Shown: positions 5,538-17,858 of the stretch, in pieces
Position numbering within the stretch: the first letter of the stretch is position 1
Layout of the letters: each line of letters begins with the position of its first letter
Source: Acidimicrobiales bacterium
Lineage (GTDB): Bacteria; Actinomycetota; Acidimicrobiia; Acidimicrobiales; BPGG01
Assembly: GCA_026002915.1 (NCBI GenBank)
Contig: BPGG01000001.1
Span: forward strand, 1,574,463 to 1,638,462
Reading direction: 5' to 3'
Length of the DNA: 64,000 nt
Translations under genes and position numbers: made by a program
The notes under the pieces: model-generated
What the model saw: the letters and a program-made list of their open reading frames with translations, nothing else
Databases searched by the model: none
What the model was told of the DNA's origin: nothing

Positions 5538-5999
5538 CTAAGGCCTTCCGAAGCTCGACGCCAAGCCGTCGACGATCTCCTCCAGGAGTATCCCCAGAGC
5601 GTGGTACAGCCGCACGAGGTCCTCGTCGGGCGATCCGGGTACGAGCTCCGGACCTTCGTCTTCCCGTACGCCCAACCTCGTCCCGATCACGAGCCGGAGG
5701 TCGTTCACCGAACGCATGAGGCACTCCAGGGCCTCGGTGTCGGCCTCTGCCGACTCGAGCGTTCGGTCGACGAGGTCCAGCGCTTCGAGGCGGCGGGCGA
5801 GTAGCTCGTCGTGTACCAGCCGATGCCACTCCCGGCTCCTGTCCTCGTCGTCGCCGTATCCGGGCGGATAGAGGCGGGCCAGTGCCGGGTCCTCGTCCGC
5901 CAGCAACAGCTCACGCAGTTCGGCCACCAGCCTCCGGAGGACGGCGCGTTCGTCCGGACTCAACGCCAGCCGAAACCGGCGTTCGTCAACCCGGGTCAC
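5538..5999 (-). CDS. Conserved actinobacterial ClpS-neighbour protein (DUF2017-like)
   Basis: Sits directly downstream of clpS. Sequence RFRLALSPDERAVLRRLVAELRELL...LYPPGYGDDEDRSREW matches my memory of this family. The start is uncertain: the ORF extends to 6095 and there is an alternative GTG at 6056, but both overlap clpS. Confidence 0.6.
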   Translation of the reverse strand: MTRVDERRFRLALSPDERAVLRRLVAELRELLLADEDPALARLYPPGYGDDEDRSREWHRLVHDELLARRLEALDLVDRTLESAEADTEALECLMRSVNDLRLVIGTRLGVREDEGPELVPGSPDEDLVRLYHALGILLEEIVDGLASSFGRP

Positions 6000-6028
6000 C
6001 CAGCGGTCACGTCTGCGTCTGGGCAGCG

Positions 6029-6334
6029 TCAGACGTCCTTCTGCATCGTCGCCCACAAACCGTGCTCGTGCAGGCGGAACACGTCGAGTTCGCACTTCTC
6101 ACGATCGCCCGAGGACACCACGGCACGTCCCTTGGTGTGCACTTCCCACATGAGCCTCTCGGCCACCTCTCTCGGGTAGCCGAACAGCTTCTGGAACACG
6201 TACGTGACGTATGACATCAGGTTGATCGGGTCATTCCAGACGATGACCACCCACGGGTAGTCGGGTTCGACTCTCGTGTCGCCGGTAGGGCGTTCGACTT
6301 CGACTGGAAGGGTCGTCGCACCGACGCCACTCAC
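6029..6334 (-). CDS. clpS: ATP-dependent Clp protease adaptor ClpS
   Basis: Core [28 protein letters not shown]...[10 protein letters not shown]. The GTG start at 6334 forms a GTGA overlap with the ctaA stop. The rest of the 416-aa track ORF is an upstream read-through artefact. Confidence 0.9.
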
Positions 6335-7395
6335 GACGTCGATTTTGCCCCCACCGAAGAAGAGATCACACCGCCCATGTCCCTTCGAGTACTGCTCACG
6401 CGGACGGCGGCCGGATGGAGCGAGCGGGAGTGGGTCGACGCCGCGAGGTGAAGTCGGACGGTGGCGAGCCAGACGAGCGTGGCACCGAGCAAGTGAACAC
6501 CTACCAGTAGCGCCGGGACGCCGGTGAAGTACTGCGTCCAGCCGACGGCCGCCTGCGCCACGGCGATCCAGAGGAGAGTCCGTGAGCGTCTCGAGATCAC
6601 GTGGGCCGGAGTCCGACGGTTGGACATCACCGCCACCACGAGCGCCAAGGCCAGGAACACGACGACCGTCAACCCATGGATACGAGCCACCACTTCCAAG
6701 GGGAGATCCAGGCGCTCCACTCGCCCGGGGTCCCCGCTGTGGGGGCCGGCAGAAGTCACGAGGGTGCCCGTGACCAAGACCACCGGCGCCCATGCGAGGG
6801 TTGCCGTGACGAGGTCCTGCAGGACGGCGGGGACGGGACCCGGCGGAGTCGAGGAGGAGGAACAGGAGGCAGAGGGAGAAGAGTGGGGTTGCGTGTGAGC
6901 AGAGCCCGCGGGTGACGGGGGCACTAGCTGCGCTCGCTCGCCGCCGCCGTCGGGAATGCCGGACTTCTCGTGGAGGACTGCGGCATTCCAGACGAGGAGC
7001 ATCGACAAAAGGAAGTGCCCGGTCACGGCCAAGGGAGTGAGATGGGTGACAACCACCACGGCGCCGAGGAGTATCTGGGCGAGCAGACCTGCGACCAGCC
7101 CGAGCGACCACCTGACGAGATCTCGTCGCCTCGGCTTCCTGAACAGCGATCCGAGTACGGCGGCCATGACGGATAACGACACGACTCCGGTGAAGAGCCT
7201 GTTTCCGTACTCGACCCAGGCGTGAAATCGCATGGGTGCCACCAACGAACCGCCTTCGCAGGTGGGCCACTCGGGGCAACCGAGCCCCGATCCGGTGAGC
7301 CGCACCGCCCCACCGGTGACGACTATGGCTATGAGGAGAACCAGTGCCGTGCCCGTGACTCGTCGGTAGGTGACCGGGCTCAATGCGAATGTCAC
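6331..7395 (-). CDS. ctaA: Heme A synthase (COX15/CtaA family)
   Basis: N-terminal [19 protein letters not shown] motif and multiple TM segments with conserved His. Divergent from ctaB, as in Bacillus. Confidence 0.85.
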
Positions 7396-7433
7396 TTGCG
7401 TGAGGGTACGGTCGATCGGCTTAGACTGTCACC

Positions 7434-8399
7434 ATGGCCACGGGCTCGGAGGCGGCAGCATCGCCGAGGTGGGGTTCCGAAGCGGTGCGCGACGGTCATC
7501 CGCACGGGAGCGTGCCGAGACGGACCTCGAGTCTCCGAGCGCGGTGCGCCGCGTTCTTGGAGTTGACCAAGCCCCGCATCATCGAGCTCCTGCTCGTGAC
7601 CACGGTGCCCTCTATGGTGCTGGCTCACGGAGGCATTCCCCCGATCGGGCTCGTGGTCGCGACGGTCCTGGGCGGCACCTTGGCTGCGGGAGGGGCGAAT
7701 GCCCTCAACATGGTGATCGACCGGGATGTCGACCGCGTGATGGCCCGTACGTCGGGACGCCCGCTGGTCACCGGCCGCGTGTCGCCGGCGGAAGCGACCT
7801 TGTTCGCCTTGGGTTGCGAGGTGGTCGCCTTCCTCATCCTCTGGAGATGGGTGAACTTGCTCGCCGCGCTGCTCGCATTCGGAGCTTTCGCCTTCTACGT
7901 CGTGGTGTACACCTTGTGGCTCAAGCGACGGTCCAGGCAGAACATCGTCATCGGAGGTGCGGCCGGAGCGGCCCCGACGCTCATCGGTTGGGCGGCCGTG
8001 ACGGGCGAGCTGGCACTGCCCGCGTGGATCCTCTTCTTAGTCGTCTTCTTGTGGACCCCTCCGCATTTTTGGGCGCTTGCGCTGCGCTACAGGGACGACT
8101 ACTCGGTTGCCCGTATCCCGATGCTGCCTGCCGTCGCGGGGACCGCCTCGGTGACGCGGAGCATCCTCGCGTACGCTGCCGCCGTAGTCGCGTGCAGCCT
8201 TCTACTTCCATTCGCCTCAGAGACAGGCCTGATCTACTCCGTGGTCGCCCTGGGGTCCGGCGTGTCGTTCGTGTGGTCGGCGTTCGAGCTACACAGGAGG
8301 CCGACAGCCTCGAACGCGATGAGGGTGTTCGCTTTTTCCATCACCTACCTGGCGCTGCTGTTCGGTGCGATCGGCGCGGACGTCCTGCTACGCGCCTGA
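7434..8399 (+). CDS. ctaB: Protoheme IX farnesyltransferase (heme O synthase)
   Basis: UbiA-type motifs LTKPRII, NMVIDRDVDRVMARTSGRPL and TPPHFWALAL. Confidence 0.9.
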   Translation: MATGSEAAASPRWGSEAVRDGHPHGSVPRRTSSLRARCAAFLELTKPRIIELLLVTTVPSMVLAHGGIPPIGLVVATVLGGTLAAGGANALNMVIDRDVDRVMARTSGRPLVTGRVSPAEATLFALGCEVVAFLILWRWVNLLAALLAFGAFAFYVVVYTLWLKRRSRQNIVIGGAAGAAPTLIGWAAVTGELALPAWILFLVVFLWTPPHFWALALRYRDDYSVARIPMLPAVAGTASVTRSILAYAAAVVACSLLLPFASETGLIYSVVALGSGVSFVWSAFELHRRPTASNAMRVFAFSITYLALLFGAIGADVLLRA

Positions 8400-8510
8400 T
8401 CGGCGCGGCCGGGTGTCGAATTCGCCTTCGACAGGGTGTCTCGGGACCGCACGAGCCGGCCACGGCCGTGAATGTGCATTTCGTTTCGGGTACGGGCCCA
8501 TGTGTAGAGT

Positions 8511-8566
8511 CGTGCCCGACAAGCGTTTGCCAAGCATCTTGGGCCGGCGCGCGGCCGTGCCCGACA
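8511..8566 (+). repeat. 11-nt direct repeat CGTGCCCGACA x2 (45-bp period) in the intergenic region upstream of the CoxI-like gene
   Basis: Identical 11-mers at 8511..8521 and 8556..8566 inside the 186-nt ctaB/CoxI-like spacer. Confidence 0.5.
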
Positions 8567-8585
8567 GTGAGGGTCGGACCACGAA

Positions 8586-10283
8586 ATGGCCGTTACACAC
8601 ATCGAAACAGTTCCGGAGGTCGTGACGCCCGATGGCGAAGACGGCCATCGGCACTACCGGCTCCCGCCGGCGGCGTCCACAGCCGATGGGGGGCCGGTCG
8701 GCCTGATTGCATCCAACGATCACAAGGCGACGGGGCGTTTGTTCCTCGTCGGTTCGCTGATCGCGCTGGTCGGGACGTTCGTGCTGCAGGCCGCTCTCGA
8801 CGTCGAGCGCGTGGATCAGTCGCGGTTCGGGTTGTTCGGTGTGGACACCTACTTCCAGTTCCTGTCGCTGCACCAGGTCTCCGCGGTTCTCTTGGGCGTC
8901 CTGCCTCTCACCGTCGGAGTCGCGATGATCGTGGTCCCTCTCCAGGTCGGCGCGCGAACCGTCGCATTCCCCCGAGCGGCTTCGCTCTCGTTCTGGGGCT
9001 GGTTGGCAGGGTCGGTGATAGTGCTGGCTTCTTATGCTGCCAACGGTGGGCCTGGCGGTGGTGACGCAGAGGGGGTCGAGCTCTTCTTGGCGGGTCTCGT
9101 GTTGGCCGTCGCATCCCTCATCCTCGCTCTCGTCTGTCTCGCCACTACGGTCGTGGCTCTCCGAGCAGAGGGCATGACGCTCGAGCGGGTTCCTTTCTTT
9201 GCCTGGGCGGTGCTCTGCTCGGCGGTCGGATGGTTGCTCACCCTCCCCGCCCTGGCCGCGATCGCGACGCTCGCCCTCGTGGACCTCCAGCAAGGCCGCC
9301 AGCTTTTCGACTCGCAAGCGCTCTGGAGTGCTCTCCACTGGTTCTTCCGTCAGCCGCAGGTGCTGCTCCTCACCGTGCCGGTGTGGGGGGTCCTGCTCGA
9401 CGTGGCAGGGGGCACTTCTGGTGCCAGAGCCCGATTGCGTTGGATATCGCAGGGCGCGATCGCTTTGTCGGCGGCACTGTCTCTGGGCGCCTTCACGCTT
9501 CACCTATACGGCGGAATCGGTGAAGTCTCGAGCGGGAGCCTCTATGACAGCTGGGCCTTCGTGGTTTGGGGAGTTCTGGCGCCACTCCCGATGATCGTGC
9601 TCTGCGGGGCTGGGCTCGACGTTCTGATGAGGGGATCTCGCAGGTTCACTCCGCCCCTGGCAGTAGCCTCGGTGTCCGCTCTGGCAGCACTGTCGGCTGC
9701 CGTGCTCTCGGCAGCAGTGGCCCTGGAGCCGTTGGAGCTGGCGGGAACGAGGGTGGCCGAGGGTGTCGCTTCTCTCGCCGTCGCGGCTACGACGGCCGCG
9801 GCACTCGCCGGCATCGCTTGGTGGGCACCGAAGATCACCGGCCGCCTTCTACCTGCCGGTGGTGTCGTCCTGCTGGCCGCACTGGTGGTCGTGGGCGTGA
9901 TAGCGCTCGGCATCGACCGTGTGGTGTCTGGGGTGTTGGACGAGCCGGACACGGTCGCGGCCGTCGGAGCCACGGAGGGTTCTTTTGACGGGAACATGTT
10001 CGGAATCGCCGAGTCCATGTCGGATGCCGTGGAAGGCCTGGCAGCGGTGGGGGCCATCGGGTCGATGGCACTCGCGCTGGCAGTCGTCCTGGGTGGAGGT
10101 GCGACACTTGCCGTCTCGCTGACGTCGGGCCCTGCTGCTGATGCGAACCCCTGGTCCGCATACACACTGGAATGGCTGGCGCCGTCCCCGCCACCGGAGG
10201 GCAACTTCGATCAGCTCCCCGAGATCGTCTCGCCGGAGCCTGCCTTGGATGAGCGGGAACGTCACGGTGGAGGTGAAGCGTGA
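8586..10283 (+). CDS. Heme-copper oxidase subunit I paralogue lacking most heme/CuB ligands
   Basis: 565 aa. Clear homology to the in-window CtaD: SNDHKATGRLF, FLSLHQV, PLQVGARTVAFPR, GMTLERVPFFAW and C-terminal NPWSAYTLEWLAPSPPPEGNF. However GHPEVY is replaced by RQPQVL, WAHHMF by FTLHLY, and there is no His where HFHYV should lie. Confidence 0.75.
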   Translation: MAVTHIETVPEVVTPDGEDGHRHYRLPPAASTADGGPVGLIASNDHKATGRLFLVGSLIALVGTFVLQAALDVERVDQSRFGLFGVDTYFQFLSLHQVSAVLLGVLPLTVGVAMIVVPLQVGARTVAFPRAASLSFWGWLAGSVIVLASYAANGGPGGGDAEGVELFLAGLVLAVASLILALVCLATTVVALRAEGMTLERVPFFAWAVLCSAVGWLLTLPALAAIATLALVDLQQGRQLFDSQALWSALHWFFRQPQVLLLTVPVWGVLLDVAGGTSGARARLRWISQGAIALSAALSLGAFTLHLYGGIGEVSSGSLYDSWAFVVWGVLAPLPMIVLCGAGLDVLMRGSRRFTPPLAVASVSALAALSAAVLSAAVALEPLELAGTRVAEGVASLAVAATTAAALAGIAWWAPKITGRLLPAGGVVLLAALVVVGVIALGIDRVVSGVLDEPDTVAAVGATEGSFDGNMFGIAESMSDAVEGLAAVGAIGSMALALAVVLGGGATLAVSLTSGPAADANPWSAYTLEWLAPSPPPEGNFDQLPEIVSPEPALDERERHGGGEA

Positions 10284-10885
10284 CATCGACCGACCTGACG
10301 GCGGTTTCGACGAGCGTGGTTCGAGAGCCTCTCGAGCGCCCGCGAGTCGTCTCCGTCGGGATGTCCCTCGTGTGCGTGGCCGTCGGCGTGTGGTTCGCCA
10401 CGTTGCTGGGCGTCTATCTGCTCGCGAGATCCGCTGTTCTGTCTGCGGGAGACGAATGGCTCGGCGGGGTCGACGTGCCGTTACAGACCTCGAACGTCAT
10501 GCTGGCGACGCTGTGCTCGTCTGCGGTCATCGCCCACTGGGCGCACTGGGCCGTCGTGAGGAACGACCGCCGCCACGCCTATCTGGCACTGTTCCTCTTG
10601 CTCGTCTTCGGCGCCGCGTACATCAACGCCACTTCTTGGCAATACCAGCAGATGGGTCTGGTCGCTGCCGAGTCGTTGGCAGGCCTCCTGGTGTATGTGA
10701 TCACGGGCTCGCACTTGGTTCTCACCGTCGTGGGGATGTTGGCGGTGTTCGTCACCGCCTTCAGGGCTCTGGCAGGTCAGTACAAGGCCGACCAGCACGA
10801 CGGGGTCCTCGCGACGGTCGTCCTCTGGGACGTCGTCGTAGCGACTTTCGTTCTCGTGTGGTTCGCCGTCTACATCACGAAGTAG
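10280..10885 (+). CDS. Cytochrome oxidase subunit III-like membrane protein (paralogue)
   Basis: GTGA overlap with the upstream stop. 201 aa, about 5 TM segments. ITGSHLVLTVVGML and VLWDVVVATFVLVWFAVYI align with CtaE LTGFHGAHVTGGIVML and LYWHFVDVVWIVIFAVVYL. Confidence 0.65.
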   Translation: MTSTDLTAVSTSVVREPLERPRVVSVGMSLVCVAVGVWFATLLGVYLLARSAVLSAGDEWLGGVDVPLQTSNVMLATLCSSAVIAHWAHWAVVRNDRRHAYLALFLLLVFGAAYINATSWQYQQMGLVAAESLAGLLVYVITGSHLVLTVVGMLAVFVTAFRALAGQYKADQHDGVLATVVLWDVVVATFVLVWFAVYITK

Positions 10886-10893
10886 GAGTGTCG

Positions 10894-11778
10894 ATGCTCA
10901 GGTCGCGCATGCTGACGACGGGAACGAGGATGTTCCTCGCGTTGGCTCTCGTCGGCTTGGCGGGGGCCTTTCTCACCGGATTCTCCACCTGCTTCCCCGC
11001 CGACGTGCAGGGGAAGCTCCCGCCGGTGCGCTGCCAGGGGAGCCAGGGTCTCGTGGACTCGATCCTCGGCCCGGTGACGTTCGGGTGGCAGGGCGGCGTC
11101 GGAGATCACGTGCAGTACTCCTTCTTCGTCGCGATGGCCGGCGCCTCACTGGTTATGGCCGTTCTCCTCGCTGCTTGGAGGGACGCCGATCCGGAAGCGG
11201 TCGCCCAGATCGTCCGTACCCAAGTGGCGCCGGTGCTGAATCCGCCCGCACGTCTGAGCTGGTGGCCCGTGCTGGGAGCCGTCTGCCTCGCGATCGTCGC
11301 GATAGGCGTGGTGGTGAGTACGTGGATGCTTCTGGCCGGCCTTGTCGGCGGGCTGCTGGTGGTGATCCAGTGGACGCTGCGCGCCTGGGCTGAGCGGGCG
11401 ACCGCCGATCCGCTGGCAAACGAAGAGATACGCTTCGAGGTCGCCTCTTGGCTGGAGGTGCCGACCATCGCCGTCCTCGCCATCGGGGCGTTCGCGATCT
11501 CGATCTCTCGGGTGTTGCTCGCCGTCGGAGAGAAGGAGGCGGTGGCGATCGCCCTCGGGGTCGCCCTGGTCGCTTTGGTGGGATTCGGACTGGCCGCGTA
11601 CGTACCGGGTGTCAGCAAGGCGGTCATGAAGGCGCTGGCAGTCCTCGGGTTCGTGGCCGTCCTTGGAGCCGGTGTCGTGGGTGCAGCGGTGGGCGAGCGC
11701 GAATTCGAGCGGCACGATGCAGGCGCTGCCCATGTCTCCACCGAGTCTGGAGCGCATTCGACCGGAGAGGGAGGTTGA
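10894..11778 (+). CDS. Polytopic membrane protein, unknown family
   Basis: ATG at 10894 lies 5 nt after an AGGAG. 294 aa, several Ala/Val/Leu-rich TM segments, high GC3. The 5' 750 nt of the track ORF (10141..) overlap the upstream genes and are discarded. Confidence 0.6.
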   Translation: MLRSRMLTTGTRMFLALALVGLAGAFLTGFSTCFPADVQGKLPPVRCQGSQGLVDSILGPVTFGWQGGVGDHVQYSFFVAMAGASLVMAVLLAAWRDADPEAVAQIVRTQVAPVLNPPARLSWWPVLGAVCLAIVAIGVVVSTWMLLAGLVGGLLVVIQWTLRAWAERATADPLANEEIRFEVASWLEVPTIAVLAIGAFAISISRVLLAVGEKEAVAIALGVALVALVGFGLAAYVPGVSKAVMKALAVLGFVAVLGAGVVGAAVGEREFERHDAGAAHVSTESGAHSTGEGG

Positions 11779-11783
11779 GAGCA

Positions 11784-13025
11784 GTGGTCGCTGGACGCGT
11801 GCGAGGGGACGCGGGGAAGGTCCGTGCTCAGACGGTCCTCGTAGCCCTCGGTGTGGTGGCCGTGCTCGCATTCGTCTTCGCTGTGGTGGGAACCGAGTGG
11901 TGGGCTCAGGATGCGCCCTTGGACACTTTCGATCCTGCCGGCCCCGCGGCGCGGACCATCATGGATCTGGTGACGCCGGTCTTCGTCGTCGCCGGACTCA
12001 TCTTCCTTTTGGTCGAGGGGCTGATCGTCTTCATCGCTTGGCGTTTTCGTGACAGATCGGGGGAGGAGAGCGAGCCGTCGTCCGGGTCATCCTCTCTGCC
12101 TCGGCAGACCCACGGCCACAATCTGTTGGAGCTCGGATGGACCACGATTCCGTTCCTGATCCTGCTGGGTGTGGCAGTGGGTTCTGTGGCGACCATCTTT
12201 CGGTTGGAAGATCGCGAACCCGACGCGCTGCGCGTGAAGGTGGTGGGACAGCAGTGGTGGTGGAGCTACGAGTACGACCTCGACGGAGACGGGTTCTCTC
12301 CCGATGATGAAAATCCCGAGGTCGTGACGGCGAACGAGCTCGTGATACCCGCCCGTCGGCAGGTGGATCTCACCATAACGTCGGCGGACGTGATCCATTC
12401 GTTCTGGATCCCGCGGCTCAACGGAAAGAAGGACGCGGTTCCCGGGAGACTGACGTCGCTGTCGCTCGAGGCCGACGAACCCGGTCGGTACCGGGGTCAG
12501 TGCACCGAGTTCTGTGGACTGTCGCACTCGAGGATGCAGATGTACGTCGTCGCGCTGGAAGAAGACGACTTCCGCACCTGGTTGGAGAAGCAGAGAGATC
12601 CAAATGCTCCCGATGAGAGGAGCATGACACCGGCGCAGAGGCGTGGGCTAGAAGTCTTCCAGAGCAATTGCACTTCCTGTCATCGCATCGCGGGCGTCAA
12701 CGGAGAGGACTACAAGGGGGCCGCGCAGGTGTCTGGCACCGCTCCGGATCTGACACACCTGATGAGCCGGGATTCGTTCGCGGGATCGATCTTCTACCTG
12801 TGGGAGGGCATCGATTCTTGGAGCGGGGTCGAGAACTATCTGACGAAGGAAGGGCTGCGGCTCAACAGGGGCGCCCTGGAATCGTGGCTGCGGAATCCAC
12901 CGGGGATGAAGCCGATGGCACCGGATCCAGATCGAGGGAGCCGATTCGGCCGTGGAATGCCGAACCTGGGCCTCAGCGAACAGCAGATAGACGATCTGGT
13001 CGCCTACCTGACTACCCTCGACTGA
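11784..13025 (+). CDS. ctaC: Cytochrome c oxidase subunit II with fused C-terminal cytochrome c (caa3-type)
   Basis: CuA motif CTEFCGLSHSRM and heme-c motif CTSCHRI. GTG at 11784 lies 9 nt after GGAGAGGGAGG. Confidence 0.9.
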   Translation: MVAGRVRGDAGKVRAQTVLVALGVVAVLAFVFAVVGTEWWAQDAPLDTFDPAGPAARTIMDLVTPVFVVAGLIFLLVEGLIVFIAWRFRDRSGEESEPSSGSSSLPRQTHGHNLLELGWTTIPFLILLGVAVGSVATIFRLEDREPDALRVKVVGQQWWWSYEYDLDGDGFSPDDENPEVVTANELVIPARRQVDLTITSADVIHSFWIPRLNGKKDAVPGRLTSLSLEADEPGRYRGQCTEFCGLSHSRMQMYVVALEEDDFRTWLEKQRDPNAPDERSMTPAQRRGLEVFQSNCTSCHRIAGVNGEDYKGAAQVSGTAPDLTHLMSRDSFAGSIFYLWEGIDSWSGVENYLTKEGLRLNRGALESWLRNPPGMKPMAPDPDRGSRFGRGMPNLGLSEQQIDDLVAYLTTLD

Positions 13026-13096
13026 GGATGAACGTGACGACGACAGACCGATGACCGACATCAGACCGATCTCGAGGCTCGACGGAGGTCTCTGAA

Positions 13097-15127
13097 GTGG
13101 CCGTTACGGAGAGAACGACACTCGAGCTGCCTGCGGCGATCGCAGAACCAGAGCCGCTCGGCGTATTTGCCAGGCCGAGAGCCAAGCGGGGGTGGCGCGC
13201 CTGGGTGACCACCGTCGACCACAAGAAGATCGGCATCATGTACGGAGCTGCCTCGCTGTTCTTCTTCCTGATCGGAGGGATCGAGGCGCTCATCATCCGA
13301 TCGCAGTTGGCCGTCCCGAACAACGACCTGATCTCTGCGGACGCATACAACCAGCTTTTCACGATGCACGCGGTGACGATGGTTTTCCTCTTCGTCATGC
13401 CGCTTGCAGCTGCCTTTGCGAACTATCTCATCCCGCTGCAGATCGGTGCGCGCGACGTGGCGTTTCCTCGGCTCAACGCACTCAGTTTCTGGATCTTCCT
13501 CGCGGGCGGGATATTCCTCAACACCAGCTGGTTTCTAGGCGGAGGTGCAGATTGTGGATGGTTCTGCTACGTACCTAACTCTACGGTCACGTTCTCCCCT
13601 AGCCATGGGGTGGATTTCTTTGCCATAGGACTACTCATCACGGGCACCGCGTCGCTCGTGAGCGCCATCAATCTCGCGGTGACCGTGTTGAACATGCGTG
13701 CTCCCGGCATGACGCTGATGCGGATGCCCGTCTTCACGTGGATGGCCTTCATCACGCAGATGTTGTTGGTGTTCGCCATGCCGGTGATCACGGTGGCTCT
13801 GATTCTCCTCTTCTTCGATCGACGCTTCGGTACCAACTTCTTCGACGTATCGGAAGGAGCTGATCCCCTTCTCTGGCAACACCTCTTCTGGATCTTCGGT
13901 CATCCCGAGGTCTACATCATCATTCTTCCGGCGTTCGGAGTGATCTCGGAGATCATTCCGACCTTCTCACGCAAGCCGCTCTTCGGATACAACTTCATGG
14001 TGTTCGCCGGTGCGGCCATCGGCTTCATGGGCTGGGGCGTGTGGGCGCACCACATGTTCGCCTCGGGAATGGGCCCTCTTTCCGTGGCTGCCTTCTCGGT
14101 GTCGACGATGTTCATCGCAGTCCCGACGGGAATCAAGATCTTCAACTGGTTGGCCACGTTGTGGGGAGGTCGGATCCGCTTCACGGTGCCGATGATGTAC
14201 GCCGTCGCGGCAGTTGCGATGTTCACGATCGGTGGCCTTTCGGGTGTAAGCCATTCCATAGCCCCGGCAGACACGCAGCAGACCGATACGTACTACATCG
14301 TCGCGCACTTCCATTACGTCATCTTCGGTGGGGCGGTGCTGTCGTTGTTCGGAGCTCTTTACTTCTGGTGGCCGAAAGCATTCGGTTACAGGCTGTCCGA
14401 AAAACTCGGCAAGTGGAACTTCTGGCTCACGTTGATCGGCTTCAACCTGACCTTTGGACCGATGCACGTCTTGGGGCTTCAGGGCATGAGCCGCAGGACC
14501 TGGACCTACGACAGGGGCATAGGGTTCGACGGGTGGAACCTCGTGGCTACGGTCGGCGCGTTCGTGCTCGCCTTGGGCGTGCTCTTGTTCCTCGTGAACG
14601 TCGCGGTTTCCACTGCCCGGCGAAAGAGTCAGCCGCCGGTCGGTCACGATCCCTGGGATGCCAGGTCGCTGGAATGGATGGTCGCTTCTCCTCCACCCGA
14701 ATACAACTTCGACCCCATTCCCCATGTGCGGGCGCGTGACGACTTCTGGTACCGAAAGTACGGGGAGGACGAGTTCGGTCGTGCGGTCCGGATCGCCGCA
14801 ACCGACGACGTAGTGCAACCAGGAGGAGATCGTCACGTCCACCTCCCTGCTCCCTCGTACTGGCCTCTCGTCATCGCCCTCGGGATGCCGATCATCGGCT
14901 ACGGGCTCATCTTCAACCTCTGGTTGGTGGTACCCGGGCTTCTACTGGTCGTGGCGGGAATGTACGGGTGGTCGATAGAGCCGCCCGACGAGCCCGAGCA
15001 CACCGGGCCCGCACACCAAGAAGCCGCCGACCAGCCCGACGGCCCCGGTGATTCAGGGGGTGCGGGAGACGAGTCTGGGGCGGCCGAGGTTTCGTCAGCG
15101 TCGGGAGAGGAGGCTCCAGTTGGCTGA
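13097..15127 (+). CDS. ctaD: Cytochrome c oxidase subunit I (14-TM type with C-terminal extension)
   Basis: All canonical motifs are present: VDHKKIGIMY, FTMHAV, FGHPEVYIIILP, WAHHMF, AHFHYV. There are two extra C-terminal TM segments plus an acidic tail. Confidence 0.95.
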   Translation: MAVTERTTLELPAAIAEPEPLGVFARPRAKRGWRAWVTTVDHKKIGIMYGAASLFFFLIGGIEALIIRSQLAVPNNDLISADAYNQLFTMHAVTMVFLFVMPLAAAFANYLIPLQIGARDVAFPRLNALSFWIFLAGGIFLNTSWFLGGGADCGWFCYVPNSTVTFSPSHGVDFFAIGLLITGTASLVSAINLAVTVLNMRAPGMTLMRMPVFTWMAFITQMLLVFAMPVITVALILLFFDRRFGTNFFDVSEGADPLLWQHLFWIFGHPEVYIIILPAFGVISEIIPTFSRKPLFGYNFMVFAGAAIGFMGWGVWAHHMFASGMGPLSVAAFSVSTMFIAVPTGIKIFNWLATLWGGRIRFTVPMMYAVAAVAMFTIGGLSGVSHSIAPADTQQTDTYYIVAHFHYVIFGGAVLSLFGALYFWWPKAFGYRLSEKLGKWNFWLTLIGFNLTFGPMHVLGLQGMSRRTWTYDRGIGFDGWNLVATVGAFVLALGVLLFLVNVAVSTARRKSQPPVGHDPWDARSLEWMVASPPPEYNFDPIPHVRARDDFWYRKYGEDEFGRAVRIAATDDVVQPGGDRHVHLPAPSYWPLVIALGMPIIGYGLIFNLWLVVPGLLLVVAGMYGWSIEPPDEPEHTGPAHQEAADQPDGPGDSGGAGDESGAAEVSSASGEEAPVG

Positions 15128-15752
15128 GACGGCAACGGCCACCGTTTCGTCGCAAGCCGCACTCGGTCACGAGGCGGGACACGACCCCCATGCGACCAGG
15201 ACGGGCATATCCAACACGAAGTTGGCAATGTGGCTGTTCTTGGCTTCGGACTGTCTCCTCTTCGGCGCGTTGATATCGACCTTCCTGATCTACGAGGGAA
15301 GGCTTCCGGCCGGCGAAATCGGCAAGGAGATCTTCGACATTCCGTTCACCTCGGTGAGCTCGTTCGTGCTGCTGATGAGCTCTCTGACCATGGTGCTCGC
15401 TGTGGCAGCCGCCCACAGGGGCGATGCTCGCAACACCCGGCTCTGGCTGGCCGCTACCGCCACTCTCGGATCGGTCTTCATCGGCGGGCAGATATACGAG
15501 TTCACCGTCTTCTACCGAGAGGGGCTCGGTTTCACGACGAGCATCTTCTCGTCCGCCTTCTACACCCTCACCGGCTTCCACGGAGCGCACGTCACCGGCG
15601 GCATCGTGATGCTCGTGTCTCTCATCGTGCTCTCGCTGCGCGGGAAGCTGCCCATGGAGAAGGCGGAGACGGTGGAGATAGTCGGCCTCTACTGGCACTT
15701 CGTCGACGTCGTGTGGATCGTGATCTTCGCGGTCGTTTACCTCGTGCCCTGA
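15120..15752 (+). CDS. ctaE: Cytochrome c oxidase subunit III
   Basis: NTKLAMWLFLASDCLLFGALI, TGFHGAHVTGG and LYWHFVDVVW. The TTG at 15120 lies 6 nt after GGAGAGGAGG and overlaps the ctaD stop. There is no in-frame ATG before the conserved region. Confidence 0.85.
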   Translation: MAETATATVSSQAALGHEAGHDPHATRTGISNTKLAMWLFLASDCLLFGALISTFLIYEGRLPAGEIGKEIFDIPFTSVSSFVLLMSSLTMVLAVAAAHRGDARNTRLWLAATATLGSVFIGGQIYEFTVFYREGLGFTTSIFSSAFYTLTGFHGAHVTGGIVMLVSLIVLSLRGKLPMEKAETVEIVGLYWHFVDVVWIVIFAVVYLVP

Positions 15753-15769
15753 GGGAGGTGGTCTCTGCG

Positions 15770-16237
15770 ATGCAGGCTACTGAGCGACTCGAATCGGGAG
15801 CCCACGAAGGGACGGGATCGGCGAGGGGTGACCTCAACTACTGGGTGGTTGCCGCGTTCCTCGCGGTAGTCACCCTCGTGGAGGTCTCCACCTACACCCA
15901 CCCCGCCTTCTGGGAGGACGTTCCGGGTCTGGGGAACATCATGGTCCCGACGCTCCTCTTTCTGATGGCCGTCAAGTTCTGGACGGTGACCTTCTTCTTC
16001 ATGCATCTGCGCTCCGACAAGCCTTTCGTGACGCTCGTCTTCTACTCCGGGCTGGTCTTGGCCGTCGCCGTGTACATCGTGACGATGCTCGCGTCGGAGT
16101 TCTTCGTCGGGGTTGAGGGATCCTCGGCCACCCGAATGTTGGCTCGGACCGGGTTCTTCGGTGCACTCACCGTCGTCGTGCTGCTGGTCGCCCACTTCGG
16201 CTTCGTCAGGCGCGACCGGCGAGCTGTCGCCCACTGA
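15770..16237 (+). CDS. ctaF: Cytochrome c oxidase subunit IV (prokaryotic COX4/CtaF-type)
   Basis: ATG at 15770 follows GAGGGAGG. Small 4-TM protein with KFWTVTFFFMHL. Its position after ctaE matches Bacillus. Confidence 0.75.
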   Translation: MQATERLESGAHEGTGSARGDLNYWVVAAFLAVVTLVEVSTYTHPAFWEDVPGLGNIMVPTLLFLMAVKFWTVTFFFMHLRSDKPFVTLVFYSGLVLAVAVYIVTMLASEFFVGVEGSSATRMLARTGFFGALTVVVLLVAHFGFVRRDRRAVAH

Positions 16238-16241
16238 GGCG

Positions 16242-17216
16242 ATGACGAAAGTGGCTCCGATCGCATCGCTCGGATGGGAGCCACATCCCGCAGTGTGGTT
16301 GCTCGTCGGCGGCCTCACAGCTGCGGGCCTCTACGTGAGCCGTTCGTTGGTGCCACACGCTCCGGTGGAGGCCGATCCGTTACCTCGTCGCCGCAGGATC
16401 GCCTTCTGGGCGAGCGTCGGAGTGCTCTGGATCGCCTCCGACTGGCCGGTTCATGACATCGCCGAAGAGCATCTCTACTTCGTCCACATGATCCAGCACA
16501 TGCTTCTCACCTACGTGTTCCCGCCGCTGCTGTTGATCTCGATACCCGAGTGGTTGGCGAAGGCGATGATCGGAGATGGTGCAGTGAAGCGTCTGCTGCA
16601 TCGCCTGGCCAGACCGATAGCTGCGGGGCTCCTGTTCAACGCAGTCGTCGTCGTGACCCACTGGGTTCCGGTAGTCGACCTTTCGGTGCGCTTCGGGTGG
16701 TTCCACTACTCGATTCATCTGGTGATGGTGCTCGCCGCCCTCACGATGTGGCTGCCGGTCTGTGGCCCTGTTCGTGAATGGCGGCTCTCCGCTCCTGCTC
16801 AGATGGTGTACCTGTTCGCCATGTCGATCGTTCCGACCGTGCCGGGTGCATGGCTCACGTTCGCGGAGGGCTCCGTGTATCCCGTGTACGACCGGCCCAC
16901 GCAGCTGTGGGGTATAGACGTGACGACGGATCAGCAGCTCGCCGGAGCAGTGATGAAGATCCTCGGCGGCCTGTATCTGTGGGGGGTGATCGCAGTCATA
17001 TTCGCTCGCTGGTCCGTCACTGAGAGCCGACGTGAGCGGGAGTTTGTGACACGTGTCCCCGCTGCGGAGTTGACCGGCGACCCAACCGTGGACGAGAGCG
17101 ACCCCTTGCATCTGGAGGCGCTGACCTTCGTTTCTTCACTCCCAGCGGAAGGTCCCGGCGGCGATGGTCGTGGCGAGGACGGCCCACGTTCCGAGCACCA
17201 TCCAAGCGGCCGCTGA
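16242..17216 (+). CDS. ctaG: Cytochrome c oxidase assembly factor CtaG (Caa3_CtaG family)
   Basis: 324 aa, polytopic. HMIQHMLLTYVFPPLLL and PVYDRP...WGI...DQQLAG motifs. Last gene of the cta operon. Confidence 0.8.
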   Translation: MTKVAPIASLGWEPHPAVWLLVGGLTAAGLYVSRSLVPHAPVEADPLPRRRRIAFWASVGVLWIASDWPVHDIAEEHLYFVHMIQHMLLTYVFPPLLLISIPEWLAKAMIGDGAVKRLLHRLARPIAAGLLFNAVVVVTHWVPVVDLSVRFGWFHYSIHLVMVLAALTMWLPVCGPVREWRLSAPAQMVYLFAMSIVPTVPGAWLTFAEGSVYPVYDRPTQLWGIDVTTDQQLAGAVMKILGGLYLWGVIAVIFARWSVTESRREREFVTRVPAAELTGDPTVDESDPLHLEALTFVSSLPAEGPGGDGRGEDGPRSEHHPSGR

Positions 17217-17858
17217 GCCTCCACCGACCTGCGTGCCGACGGCCTCCTCCAAGAGCCGTCCCAGAGCATCGGGGGGCAGCAAAGCGGCCAGCCTCGCGAG
17301 CGGTTCGGGCAAGTCGGAGGCGGGTACCACAGTGCCGCCGAACAGGACCAAGAGGACGTACACCGCGTTGGTGACCGCGAGGTTGACCAACGCAGGCAGC
17401 ACGCCGGCGAATACGAGTCCGAGGGCCGCGAACACATACGTACCCAGAGCGAGAGCAGGAAGGAACCACGGACTGAACGTGGCATTCCAGCCCAGAGCCA
17501 TGGCGGTGAGCAGGAGCACCGCCACCTGAACTGCCTCGACGAAGAGTACGGCGGTCGCCTTTGCCCCCACGAGTCGAACGCGTCCGAGCGGAGACGCACC
17601 CAGCCTCTTCAGCACGAGCTGCGATCGTTCGAAGCCTGTTGCGATCGAGAGGCTGGTGAACGCATTGGACATCACTGCCAACGTGAGAATGCGCGGTGTC
17701 AACTCGTCGACGGATCCTGGTCCACCCACTCCTCCCACTCGGACCCGGGAGAGAAAGAGGAACATCGCCACCGGTATCACCAGCGAGACGAGCATCTGCT
17801 CGCCCTGGCGCAGGCTCAGGCGAATCTCGAACGCGGCGTGAGCAAGCATCGGCCTCAC
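17136..17858 (-). CDS. ABC-2 type transporter permease
   Basis: 240 aa, 6 TM segments. Downstream of and on the same strand as the ABC ATPase gene. Confidence 0.75.
   Translation of the reverse strand: MRPMLAHAAFEIRLSLRQGEQMLVSLVIPVAMFLFLSRVRVGGVGGPGSVDELTPRILTLAVMSNAFTSLSIATGFERSQLVLKRLGASPLGRVRLVGAKATAVLFVEAVQVAVLLLTAMALGWNATFSPWFLPALALGTYVFAALGLVFAGVLPALVNLAVTNAVYVLLVLFGGTVVPASDLPEPLARLAALLPPDALGRLLEEAVGTQVGGGSAAAWMVLGTWAVLATTIAAGTFRWE

Follow-up and report, generated by a model that had tools for sequence, protein, structure and literature searches.

Why would the operon of a working terminal oxidase carry a second set of oxidase-like genes that have lost most catalytic residues? The question is raised by a 64,000-nt stretch of contig BPGG01000001.1 (assembly GCA_026002915.1) from an Acidimicrobiales bacterium, here called the window, whose numbering is used for all positions. 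Three genes at 8586-11778, between ctaB and ctaC, were named psI, psIII and gene 3 (together, the trio), and their products I', III' and IV'. The oxidase encoded next to them is of the caa3 type, since its ctaC joins a COX2 protein to a cytochrome c domain. An earlier note on this DNA (the original prediction) proposed a pseudo-oxidase module beside a real caa3 oxidase, and ligand loss, fold, selection and linkage all agree with that proposal: in the sampled Acidimicrobiia the trio is a conserved, selected and cofactor-less set of subunit I, III and IV homologues that is genetically locked to the caa3 genes. As to its role, we favor, at even chances, a redox-dead I'-III'-IV' subcomplex that would be permanently associated with the active oxidase as its structural partner.

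psI was proposed to be a homologue of CtaD, and it is. It matches PF00115 with an expectation value (E) of 3.9e-39 (135 bits, cut-off 34.8) and is 27% identical to the CtaD of the window over 539 alignment columns (BLASTP, E = 2e-45). An AlphaFold2 model based on 63 homologues forms a complete 12-helix bundle, with a predicted local distance difference test score (pLDDT) of 88 and a predicted template modelling score (pTM) of 0.91. Foldseek aligned this model to solved subunit I structures at TM-scores of 0.72-0.84, with E values down to 2.5e-17. The best structural matches are subunits I of the A family, those of E. coli bo3, Thermus caa3, mycobacterial and corynebacterial aa3, Paracoccus and bovine oxidases. 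Curated models for functional enzymes score psI below their cut-offs (TIGR02891, CtaD_CoxA, 192.7 vs 670.75 bits; NF050116, actinobacterial aa3, 147.8 vs 880 bits). A cbb3-type CcoN identity was considered and rejected, as psI has no TIGR00780 match at E ≤ 0.01 and its best models are those of the A family.

The catalytic residues of psI are largely gone, and BLASTP alignment to CtaD reproduced every motif change that had been quoted for it. FGHPEVY of CtaD is replaced by FRQPQVL and WAHHMF by FTLHLY, and AHFHYV aligns to a stretch free of histidine. The eight histidines of psI are at positions 5, 21, 23, 46, 96, 251, 306 and 560, and two of the six canonical ligands are kept, H96 at the first haem a position and H306 at the third CuB position. 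The cross-linked tyrosine is replaced by leucine and the key glutamate (E286 equivalent) by glutamine. The equivalents of N121, D132 and N139 in the D pathway are Met, Thr and Ala, those of T359 and K362 in the K pathway are Met and Leu, and the arginine pair of the haem propionates (R481/R482 equivalents) is Asp/Thr. In the ctaD product of the same operon, all ligand and channel positions scored, the D132 equivalent aside, are canonical.

A protein search returned about 90 full-length psI homologues, 32-46% identical to the window protein, and residues were counted in the top 88. Those with a taxon label are assigned to Acidimicrobiales, Acidimicrobiia, Iamia or generically to 'Actinobacteria', and genuine oxidases rank below them. 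Glutamine occupies the position of the first CuB histidine in 58 homologues and that of the second in 62, while Pro, Thr, Leu, Gln or other residues are found at the third. At the haem a3 position 62 proteins have Gln or Val and seven have His; at the two haem a positions His is present in 37 and 15, respectively. The active-site tyrosine is kept in 58/88, its cross-link histidine partner in only one. The position of the key glutamate is Gln, Thr or Ala, hydrophobic or small residues take the places of N121, N139, T359 and K362, and the R481/R482 positions are mostly replaced (Arg at R481 in 16/88). Histidines at shifted positions that might restore a ligand set were looked for in the family alignment and none was found: His occurs at no column conserved at ≥90%, no transmembrane column exceeds 46% His, and the only column with ≥30% His at a ligand position is that of 46%. 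H96 and H306 of the window protein are not conserved in the family and thus carry no weight. Ligand loss is a trait of the psI family and no accident of this genome.

These substitutions could be taken as signs of an active but unorthodox oxidase or nitric oxide (NO) reductase with non-canonical ligands, as Gln is common at three of the histidine positions, the active-site tyrosine is widely present, and newly described NO reductase (NOR) families also vary their active-site residues (PMC11214002). However, those families keep their haem ligands, whereas psI loses the axial histidine at both haem sites and conserves no alternative ligand. The Gln positions are themselves variable (two of them are Leu and Val in psI of the window), and the module is without a CuA, haem c or quinol-binding partner subunit. 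An unorthodox enzyme is thus very improbable, and NO reductase activity was rejected on the loss of the axial ligands at both haem sites. Judged by homology, psI belongs to the A-family branch of the haem-copper oxidase superfamily and has none of the functional marks of an oxidase or NO reductase.

Motifs common to the psI family and real subunit I include DHKxIGRL, VVPLQVGAxTVAFPRAA, RAPGMxLxRVPxFSW, WAPKxxGR and the tail DDPWxGHTLEWATxSPPPxGNF. The best-conserved parts are the C-terminal tail and the segments that correspond to CtaD 91-150 and 181-240. The N-terminus is poorly conserved, and so is much of the C-terminal half, the segment matching the haem-ligand motif included. A profile of the family scores the in-operon CtaDs at a median of 301 bits, no better than the CtaDs of Chloroflexota and Actinomycetia (308-330 bits), and the duplication that gave rise to psI is probably ancient.

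The proposed alignment of psIII to CtaE is borne out by a PF00510 match at E = 7.4e-12 (46.1 bits, cut-off 23.8) and by hhalign comparison with the in-operon CtaE family (98.4% probability, E = 4e-15). The real subunit III motifs YEF, HGxHV and YWHFVD are replaced in the psIII consensus by in..yly, G.hlam and fWya.Va, and among the residues conserved at ≥90% there is no Glu or His at these sites.

Gene 3 had been assigned to no recognisable family, and this no longer holds, as Pfam, fold and hhalign comparisons all connect it remotely to actinobacterial subunit IV (CtaF, PF12270). The window protein itself matches PF12270 at E = 0.009 over one hairpin only (16.5 bits, cut-off 26.9), while relatives joined to it at E < 1e-36 reach up to 31.1 bits and cover positions 5-124 of 132; among the 44 long variants scanned (see below), 17 match at E ≤ 0.01, the best at 7.2e-08. 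The structure model of gene 3 (pLDDT 78) has seven membrane helices. Its best fold match is 7q21_F (Foldseek probability 0.84; E = 0.021 by sequence), a chain of the Corynebacterium supercomplex named 'Cytochrome c oxidase polypeptide 4' by its depositors. In addition, residues 96-163 align to CtaD 565-628 (hhalign, 89-95% probability, E = 2e-6 to 4e-8), which is CtaD's own PF12270-like C-terminal hairpin. By these comparisons gene 3 appears to be a remote CtaF/PF12270 relative with three extra helices, and the module would be I'-III'-IV'. No relationship of gene 3 to the Bacillus-type CtaF (COX4_pro), CtaE or psIII was found by hhalign. A search of its profile against PDB sequences gave designed coiled coils only, which were discarded as spurious low-complexity matches.

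Gene 3 is better conserved than psI. A protein search gave 234 relatives at E ≤ 1e-3. Among the 120 listed, identity is about 35-47%, and 'hypothetical' is the name of nearly all that have been given one. In a scan of 1.84 billion representatives, 1027 clusters fell in the family. Four motifs are near-invariant: GPxxGWKGGxGxHxxY, FRDADPEA, WxxRxWAERATGDxxxN and SRVLLAV. GWKGGxGxHxxY (H72, Y75) begins helix 2, on the side that presumably faces outward, and SRVLLAV (S205-R206) places an arginine within a predicted membrane helix. The predicted topology puts the C-terminus outside the cell; the N-terminus is basic, and two conserved motifs lie in loops presumably on the cytoplasmic side.

In order to survey the distribution of the module, genomes were searched with peptide patterns from the gene 3 alignment, and relatives were found in at least 236 species-level genomes, which is a lower bound. 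Of the 80 listed, nearly all bear the label Acidimicrobiia or just Actinomycetota, and they include Iamiaceae, Microthrixaceae, Ca. Microthrix, Rhabdothermincola, Aquihabitans and marine Acidimicrobiaceae; a few metagenome-assembled genomes (MAGs) with gene 3 are labelled otherwise (Bifidobacterium, Acidobacteria). The cultured Rhabdothermincola salaria is among the matches, and cultured Acidimicrobiia relatives make the function of the trio directly testable. Eighty loci were retrieved, 77 of them with a readable upstream region, and the order ctaB-psI-psIII-gene3-ctaC-ctaD-ctaE-ctaF(-ctaG) was found in 76 of the 77. In every locus examined the trio adjoins cta genes. The three genes had been described as inserted between ctaB and ctaC; their location is as described, and a local insertion is not supported, as the arrangement is ancestral to the whole order. 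The single exception, L014 from a low-coverage Microthrixaceae MAG, has the order ctaB-psIII-gene3-ctaC with about 130 nt (6309-6440) in the place of psI. It is either a natural operon without psI or an artefact of low-coverage assembly.

Spacings were estimated from start codons in 76 genomes (70 for ctaB-psI). The median gaps are about -1 nt for psI-psIII, 6 nt for psIII-gene3 and 150 nt for ctaB-psI. The first two suggest translational coupling. Between gene 3 and ctaC the gap varies (interquartile range -4 to 185 nt) and comes to 180-190 nt in many relatives. With 5 nt between them in this window, a common transcript of the trio and ctaC is plausible here, and is no general rule.

Genes with lost catalytic residues might be unexpressed, decaying duplicates, in this case of ctaD and ctaE. 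We determined the ratio of nonsynonymous to synonymous substitution rates (dN/dS) by the Nei-Gojobori method in 20 close genome pairs with dS between 0.05 and 2. Median dN/dS was 0.13 for psI, 0.07 for psIII and 0.12 for gene 3, compared to 0.05 for ctaD, 0.05 for ctaE, 0.07 for ctaC and 0.06 for ctaB. The trio is under purifying selection, at most about twice as relaxed as that on the catalytic subunits. In most of the 80 loci its frames are uninterrupted, and where they are split the real cta genes of that genome are split too. Shine-Dalgarno motifs and overlapping start and stop codons are conserved, and the psI model is confident. Decay is hardly credible in view of these values, and decaying pseudogenes were ruled out by the selection and conservation data.

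Strong purifying selection, together with conserved gene 3 motifs of unassigned role and a tight trio with looser spacing to ctaB and ctaC, is also what a new membrane function would show: an ion or small-molecule channel, a lipid-binding module or a sensor that is co-regulated with respiration and makes no contact with the oxidase. The psI family, however, has no conserved charged or polar intramembrane residues, its canonical proton pathways are hydrophobic, and the trio does not occur away from cta genes in any locus examined. We regard such a non-redox function as distinctly improbable.

A hint of a different kind comes from size variants of gene 3. About one third of the best 150 representatives are 320-410 amino acids long. 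A C-terminal Cupredoxin_1 domain was found in 27 of 44 long variants scanned, and five also match the plastocyanin/azurin family. The type-1 copper motif C-x2-H-x3-4-M is present in six of 55 long relatives (P0265, P0291, P0311, P0335, P0357 and P0358) and absent from the rest; one example, FFCDVHPEQMRG, aligns to YFCTPHPFMRG of amicyanin. Most of the cupredoxin domains lack the Cys, His and Met ligands, and gene 3 of the window is without any such domain. Long variants with a readable context (L084, L085 and L086, none of them among the six copper-motif proteins) occupy the same operon position (L084:2695-3924; L086:8698-9855), and P0324, from L084, bears a cupredoxin-like domain. A membrane-tethered blue-copper domain is sensible only near an electron-transfer partner, and this is the best hint that the module works within the respiratory chain machinery.

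On the reading that we favor, the trio would be a redox-dead copy of the membrane core of the oxidase that binds neither haem a, haem a3 nor CuB. I', III' and IV' retain the folds of their catalytic counterparts, along with structural motifs on the cytoplasmic face, and would assemble together like real subunits I, III and IV. An I'-III'-IV' subcomplex is suggested by homology to interacting subunits and, most strongly, by the hairpin that is split in one case and fused in the other: psI ends exactly at the start of CtaD's PF12270-like extension, and the piece fused to real CtaD comes in the trio from the separate gene 3, which points to a contact between psI and gene 3. The subcomplex would sit permanently beside CtaCDEF, either as the pseudo-protomer of an asymmetric 'dimer' or as a docking platform for a supercomplex, and in some lineages IV' would hold a blue-copper domain on the periplasmic side, close to where electrons enter. 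A more specific form, which we hold to be possible at somewhat less than even chances, is an obligate asymmetric caa3 assembly of a catalytic I-II-III-IV unit and a cofactor-free I'-III'-IV' unit of ancient paralogues, the latter providing a supercomplex interface and, in some lineages, a blue-copper anchor. To our knowledge there is no known case of a structural pseudoenzyme of an oxidase catalytic core, and the haem-copper oxidase core would gain its first pseudoenzyme version if such an obligate asymmetric assembly is true.

Several points weigh against a permanent partnership. A physical association with CtaCDEF is suggested solely by gene linkage and the cupredoxin variants. The operon without psI in L014 indicates that I' may be dispensable or encoded elsewhere. 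The spacer of about 185 nt between gene 3 and ctaC in many relatives suggests that the trio may be a transcription unit of its own. The wide loss of cupredoxin ligands argues that electron carriage is not a general or conserved function. Finally, mirror-tree partial correlations were 0.65-0.83 for all pairs, and those between trio and oxidase did not stand out from background, as gauged by a single control gene.

With the haem A and haem O synthesis genes (ctaA, ctaB) on one side, ctaC on the other and the assembly factor ctaG at the end of the operon, the position of the trio would also suit a transient assembly scaffold or chaperone that mimics the I-III-IV core, holds CtaC, haem A or other pieces, and is absent from the mature oxidase. 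The slightly weaker constraint on psI and gene 3, compared with the catalytic subunits, fits this as well. Against it, the trio conserves no membrane His, Cys, Met or Tyr for even transient binding of haem or copper, and the arginine pair of the haem propionates is mostly replaced. The C-terminal half of real subunit I contacts subunit II in published structures, and the corresponding half of psI holds its least conserved stretches. The cupredoxin-bearing variants also fit a permanent respiratory component better. We consider a transient scaffold unlikely, although less so than the other alternatives.

A redox-dead structural module has likenesses to, and differences from, several known systems. 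With the A-family core (Thermus caa3, 2YEV; Mycobacterium and Corynebacterium aa3, 6HWH and 7Q21) the trio shares the 12-helix psI, the five-helix psIII and the CtaF-like helices of gene 3, as well as the cytoplasmic-face and C-terminal tail motifs of psI. It differs in that the haem, CuB, cross-link tyrosine and proton-pathway positions of psI are unconserved or replaced, most members have no subunit II partner, and psI stays at 192.7 bits where the cut-off is 670.75. Core1 and Core2 of the mitochondrial bc1 complex are inactive homologues of processing peptidases with a structural role. Like them, the trio has lost catalytic residues and is retained under selection in or next to a respiratory complex; unlike them, it is paralogous to the catalytic core of the very complex beside it, comprises three duplicated subunits, and is a putative member of that complex. 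NifEN, the non-catalytic scaffold paralogue of nitrogenase NifDK, still binds clusters. It resembles the trio as a paralogous core copy that lies among the genes of the enzyme and serves a purpose other than catalysis, in line with the scaffold explanation, and differs in that psI, psIII and gene 3 are without conserved ligand residues.

Two comparisons come from within the oxidase superfamily. Cofactor-poor subunits II (CyoA of bo3, subunit II of gNOR, archaeal DoxC) also keep a fold after loss of the metal site, as reported for the gNOR and bo3 proteins (PMC11214002). In those enzymes, unlike in the trio, subunit I is active; here subunit I itself is emptied. The NOR families eNOR, bNOR, sNOR, gNOR and nNOR were, like psI, found in genomes and metagenomes as divergent haem-copper oxidase subunits I with altered active-site residues. 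They are enzymes and keep the haem ligands and most metal ligands (PMC11214002), whereas psI keeps no ligand reliably. A widespread, selected, cofactor-free family indicates that the subunit I scaffold is useful beyond catalysis, and the trio can be seen as a natural experiment on the structural contribution of the subunit I, III and IV folds.

The module had been thought undescribed. No description of a haem-ligand-free subunit I family was found in the open-access literature, where absence is no proof, and no characterised family was found among curated family models. Haem-copper oxidase subunit I is usually defined by six His ligands. In building an oxidase classifier, Sousa et al. (2011) discarded sequences without six His (PMC3084760), and this filter may help explain why the psI family is unlisted. 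In public records a protein identical to psI is named 'cytochrome c oxidase subunit 1', and the homologues P0009, P0012, P0034, P0042, P0055 and P0062 are named 'cbb3-type cytochrome c oxidase subunit I'. With such names, metabolic reconstructions of Acidimicrobiia may over-count terminal oxidases or wrongly infer high-affinity cbb3 enzymes. Genome-based papers on Acidimicrobiia report cbb3 oxidases (e.g. PMC8357290), and some of these calls might stem from mislabelled psI.

The tight packing of the trio between ctaB and ctaC had been described correctly, with coordinates, overlap, gaps and the spacer upstream of psI all exact (Table 1). The psI/psIII overlap is GTGA, psIII and gene 3 are 8 nt apart, and ctaC follows with a GTG start codon at 11784. 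Shine-Dalgarno-like GGAGG/AGGAG sequences lie upstream of psIII, gene 3 and ctaC.

Table 1 Features of the trio and the cta locus in window coordinates
Feature	Position	Strand	Evidence and remarks
ctaA, haem A synthase	6331..7395	-	PF02628 E 1.8e-22; divergent from ctaB; position kept in relatives
ctaB, haem O synthase	7434..8399	+	PF01040 UbiA E 5.5e-63
ctaB-psI spacer, 186 nt	8400..8585		may contain a trio promoter region
psI, 565 aa, ligand-deficient A-family subunit I homologue	8586..10283	+	PF00115 E 3.9e-39
psIII, 201 aa, five-helix subunit III homologue	10280..10885	+	PF00510 E 7.4e-12
gene 3, 294 aa, seven helices, four CtaF-like (PF12270) and three extra	10894..11778	+	PF12270 E 0.009, below cut-off
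ctaC, real subunit II with fused cytochrome c domain	11784..13025	+	PF00116, PF02790, PF00034
ctaD, real subunit I, 676 aa	13097..15127	+	PF00115 E 1e-157; TIGR02891 706.8 bits, above cut-off
ctaE, real subunit III	~15120..15752	+	PF00510 E 3.5e-17; start probably TTG 15120, GGAGAGGAGG upstream
ctaF, Bacillus-type subunit IV (COX4_pro)	15770..16237	+	PF03626 E 1.7e-07
ctaG, caa3 assembly factor	16242..17216	+	PF09678 E 4.5e-42

The ctaB-psI spacer gave no Rfam match at E ≤ 1 and no match to the sigma-70 consensus. A scan of 7300-17600 found no promoter-like sites and terminator-like sites at chance level, and is uninformative on transcription units. CtaD carries a C-terminal two-helix extension (residues 576-628; window 14820-15127) that matches the actinobacterial subunit IV PF12270. 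As the operon also encodes a Bacillus-type subunit IV, the active enzyme appears to mix both oxidase styles.

Around the operon, a ClpS and DUF2017 gene pair adjoins ctaA in relatives (window 5538-6098 on the minus strand and upstream; L001, L002 and L086). An ABC transporter follows the cta operon, with serS after it in L086 and in this window, so the wider neighbourhood is conserved too. Ten larger genes scanned at 28996-62417 encode an alkyl-sulfatase-like metallo-beta-lactamase, glnA, glnE, a sigma-70 factor, a HAD hydrolase, NhaA, an acyl-CoA dehydrogenase, topA, an MFS transporter and a PAS-GAF-GGDEF-EAL protein, a housekeeping set; no quinol:cytochrome c reductase (qcr) or alternative complex III gene is among these ten.

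A different ligand-poor oxidase module, with the order II'-I'-ctaA-ctaB, was observed at L003:7372-9749 (2.8-Mb contig, ERZ25039541). In its COX2-like protein of 211 amino acids, the Cys and His ligands of CuA are gone (GGSYAYSGPAYPTM replaces GQCTEFCGLSHSRM). The COX1-like protein of this module, P0091 (582 amino acids), has Tyr, Thr, Gln, Asn and Asp at five of the six His positions, a pattern common to P0090, P0094, P0096, P0099 and P0100.

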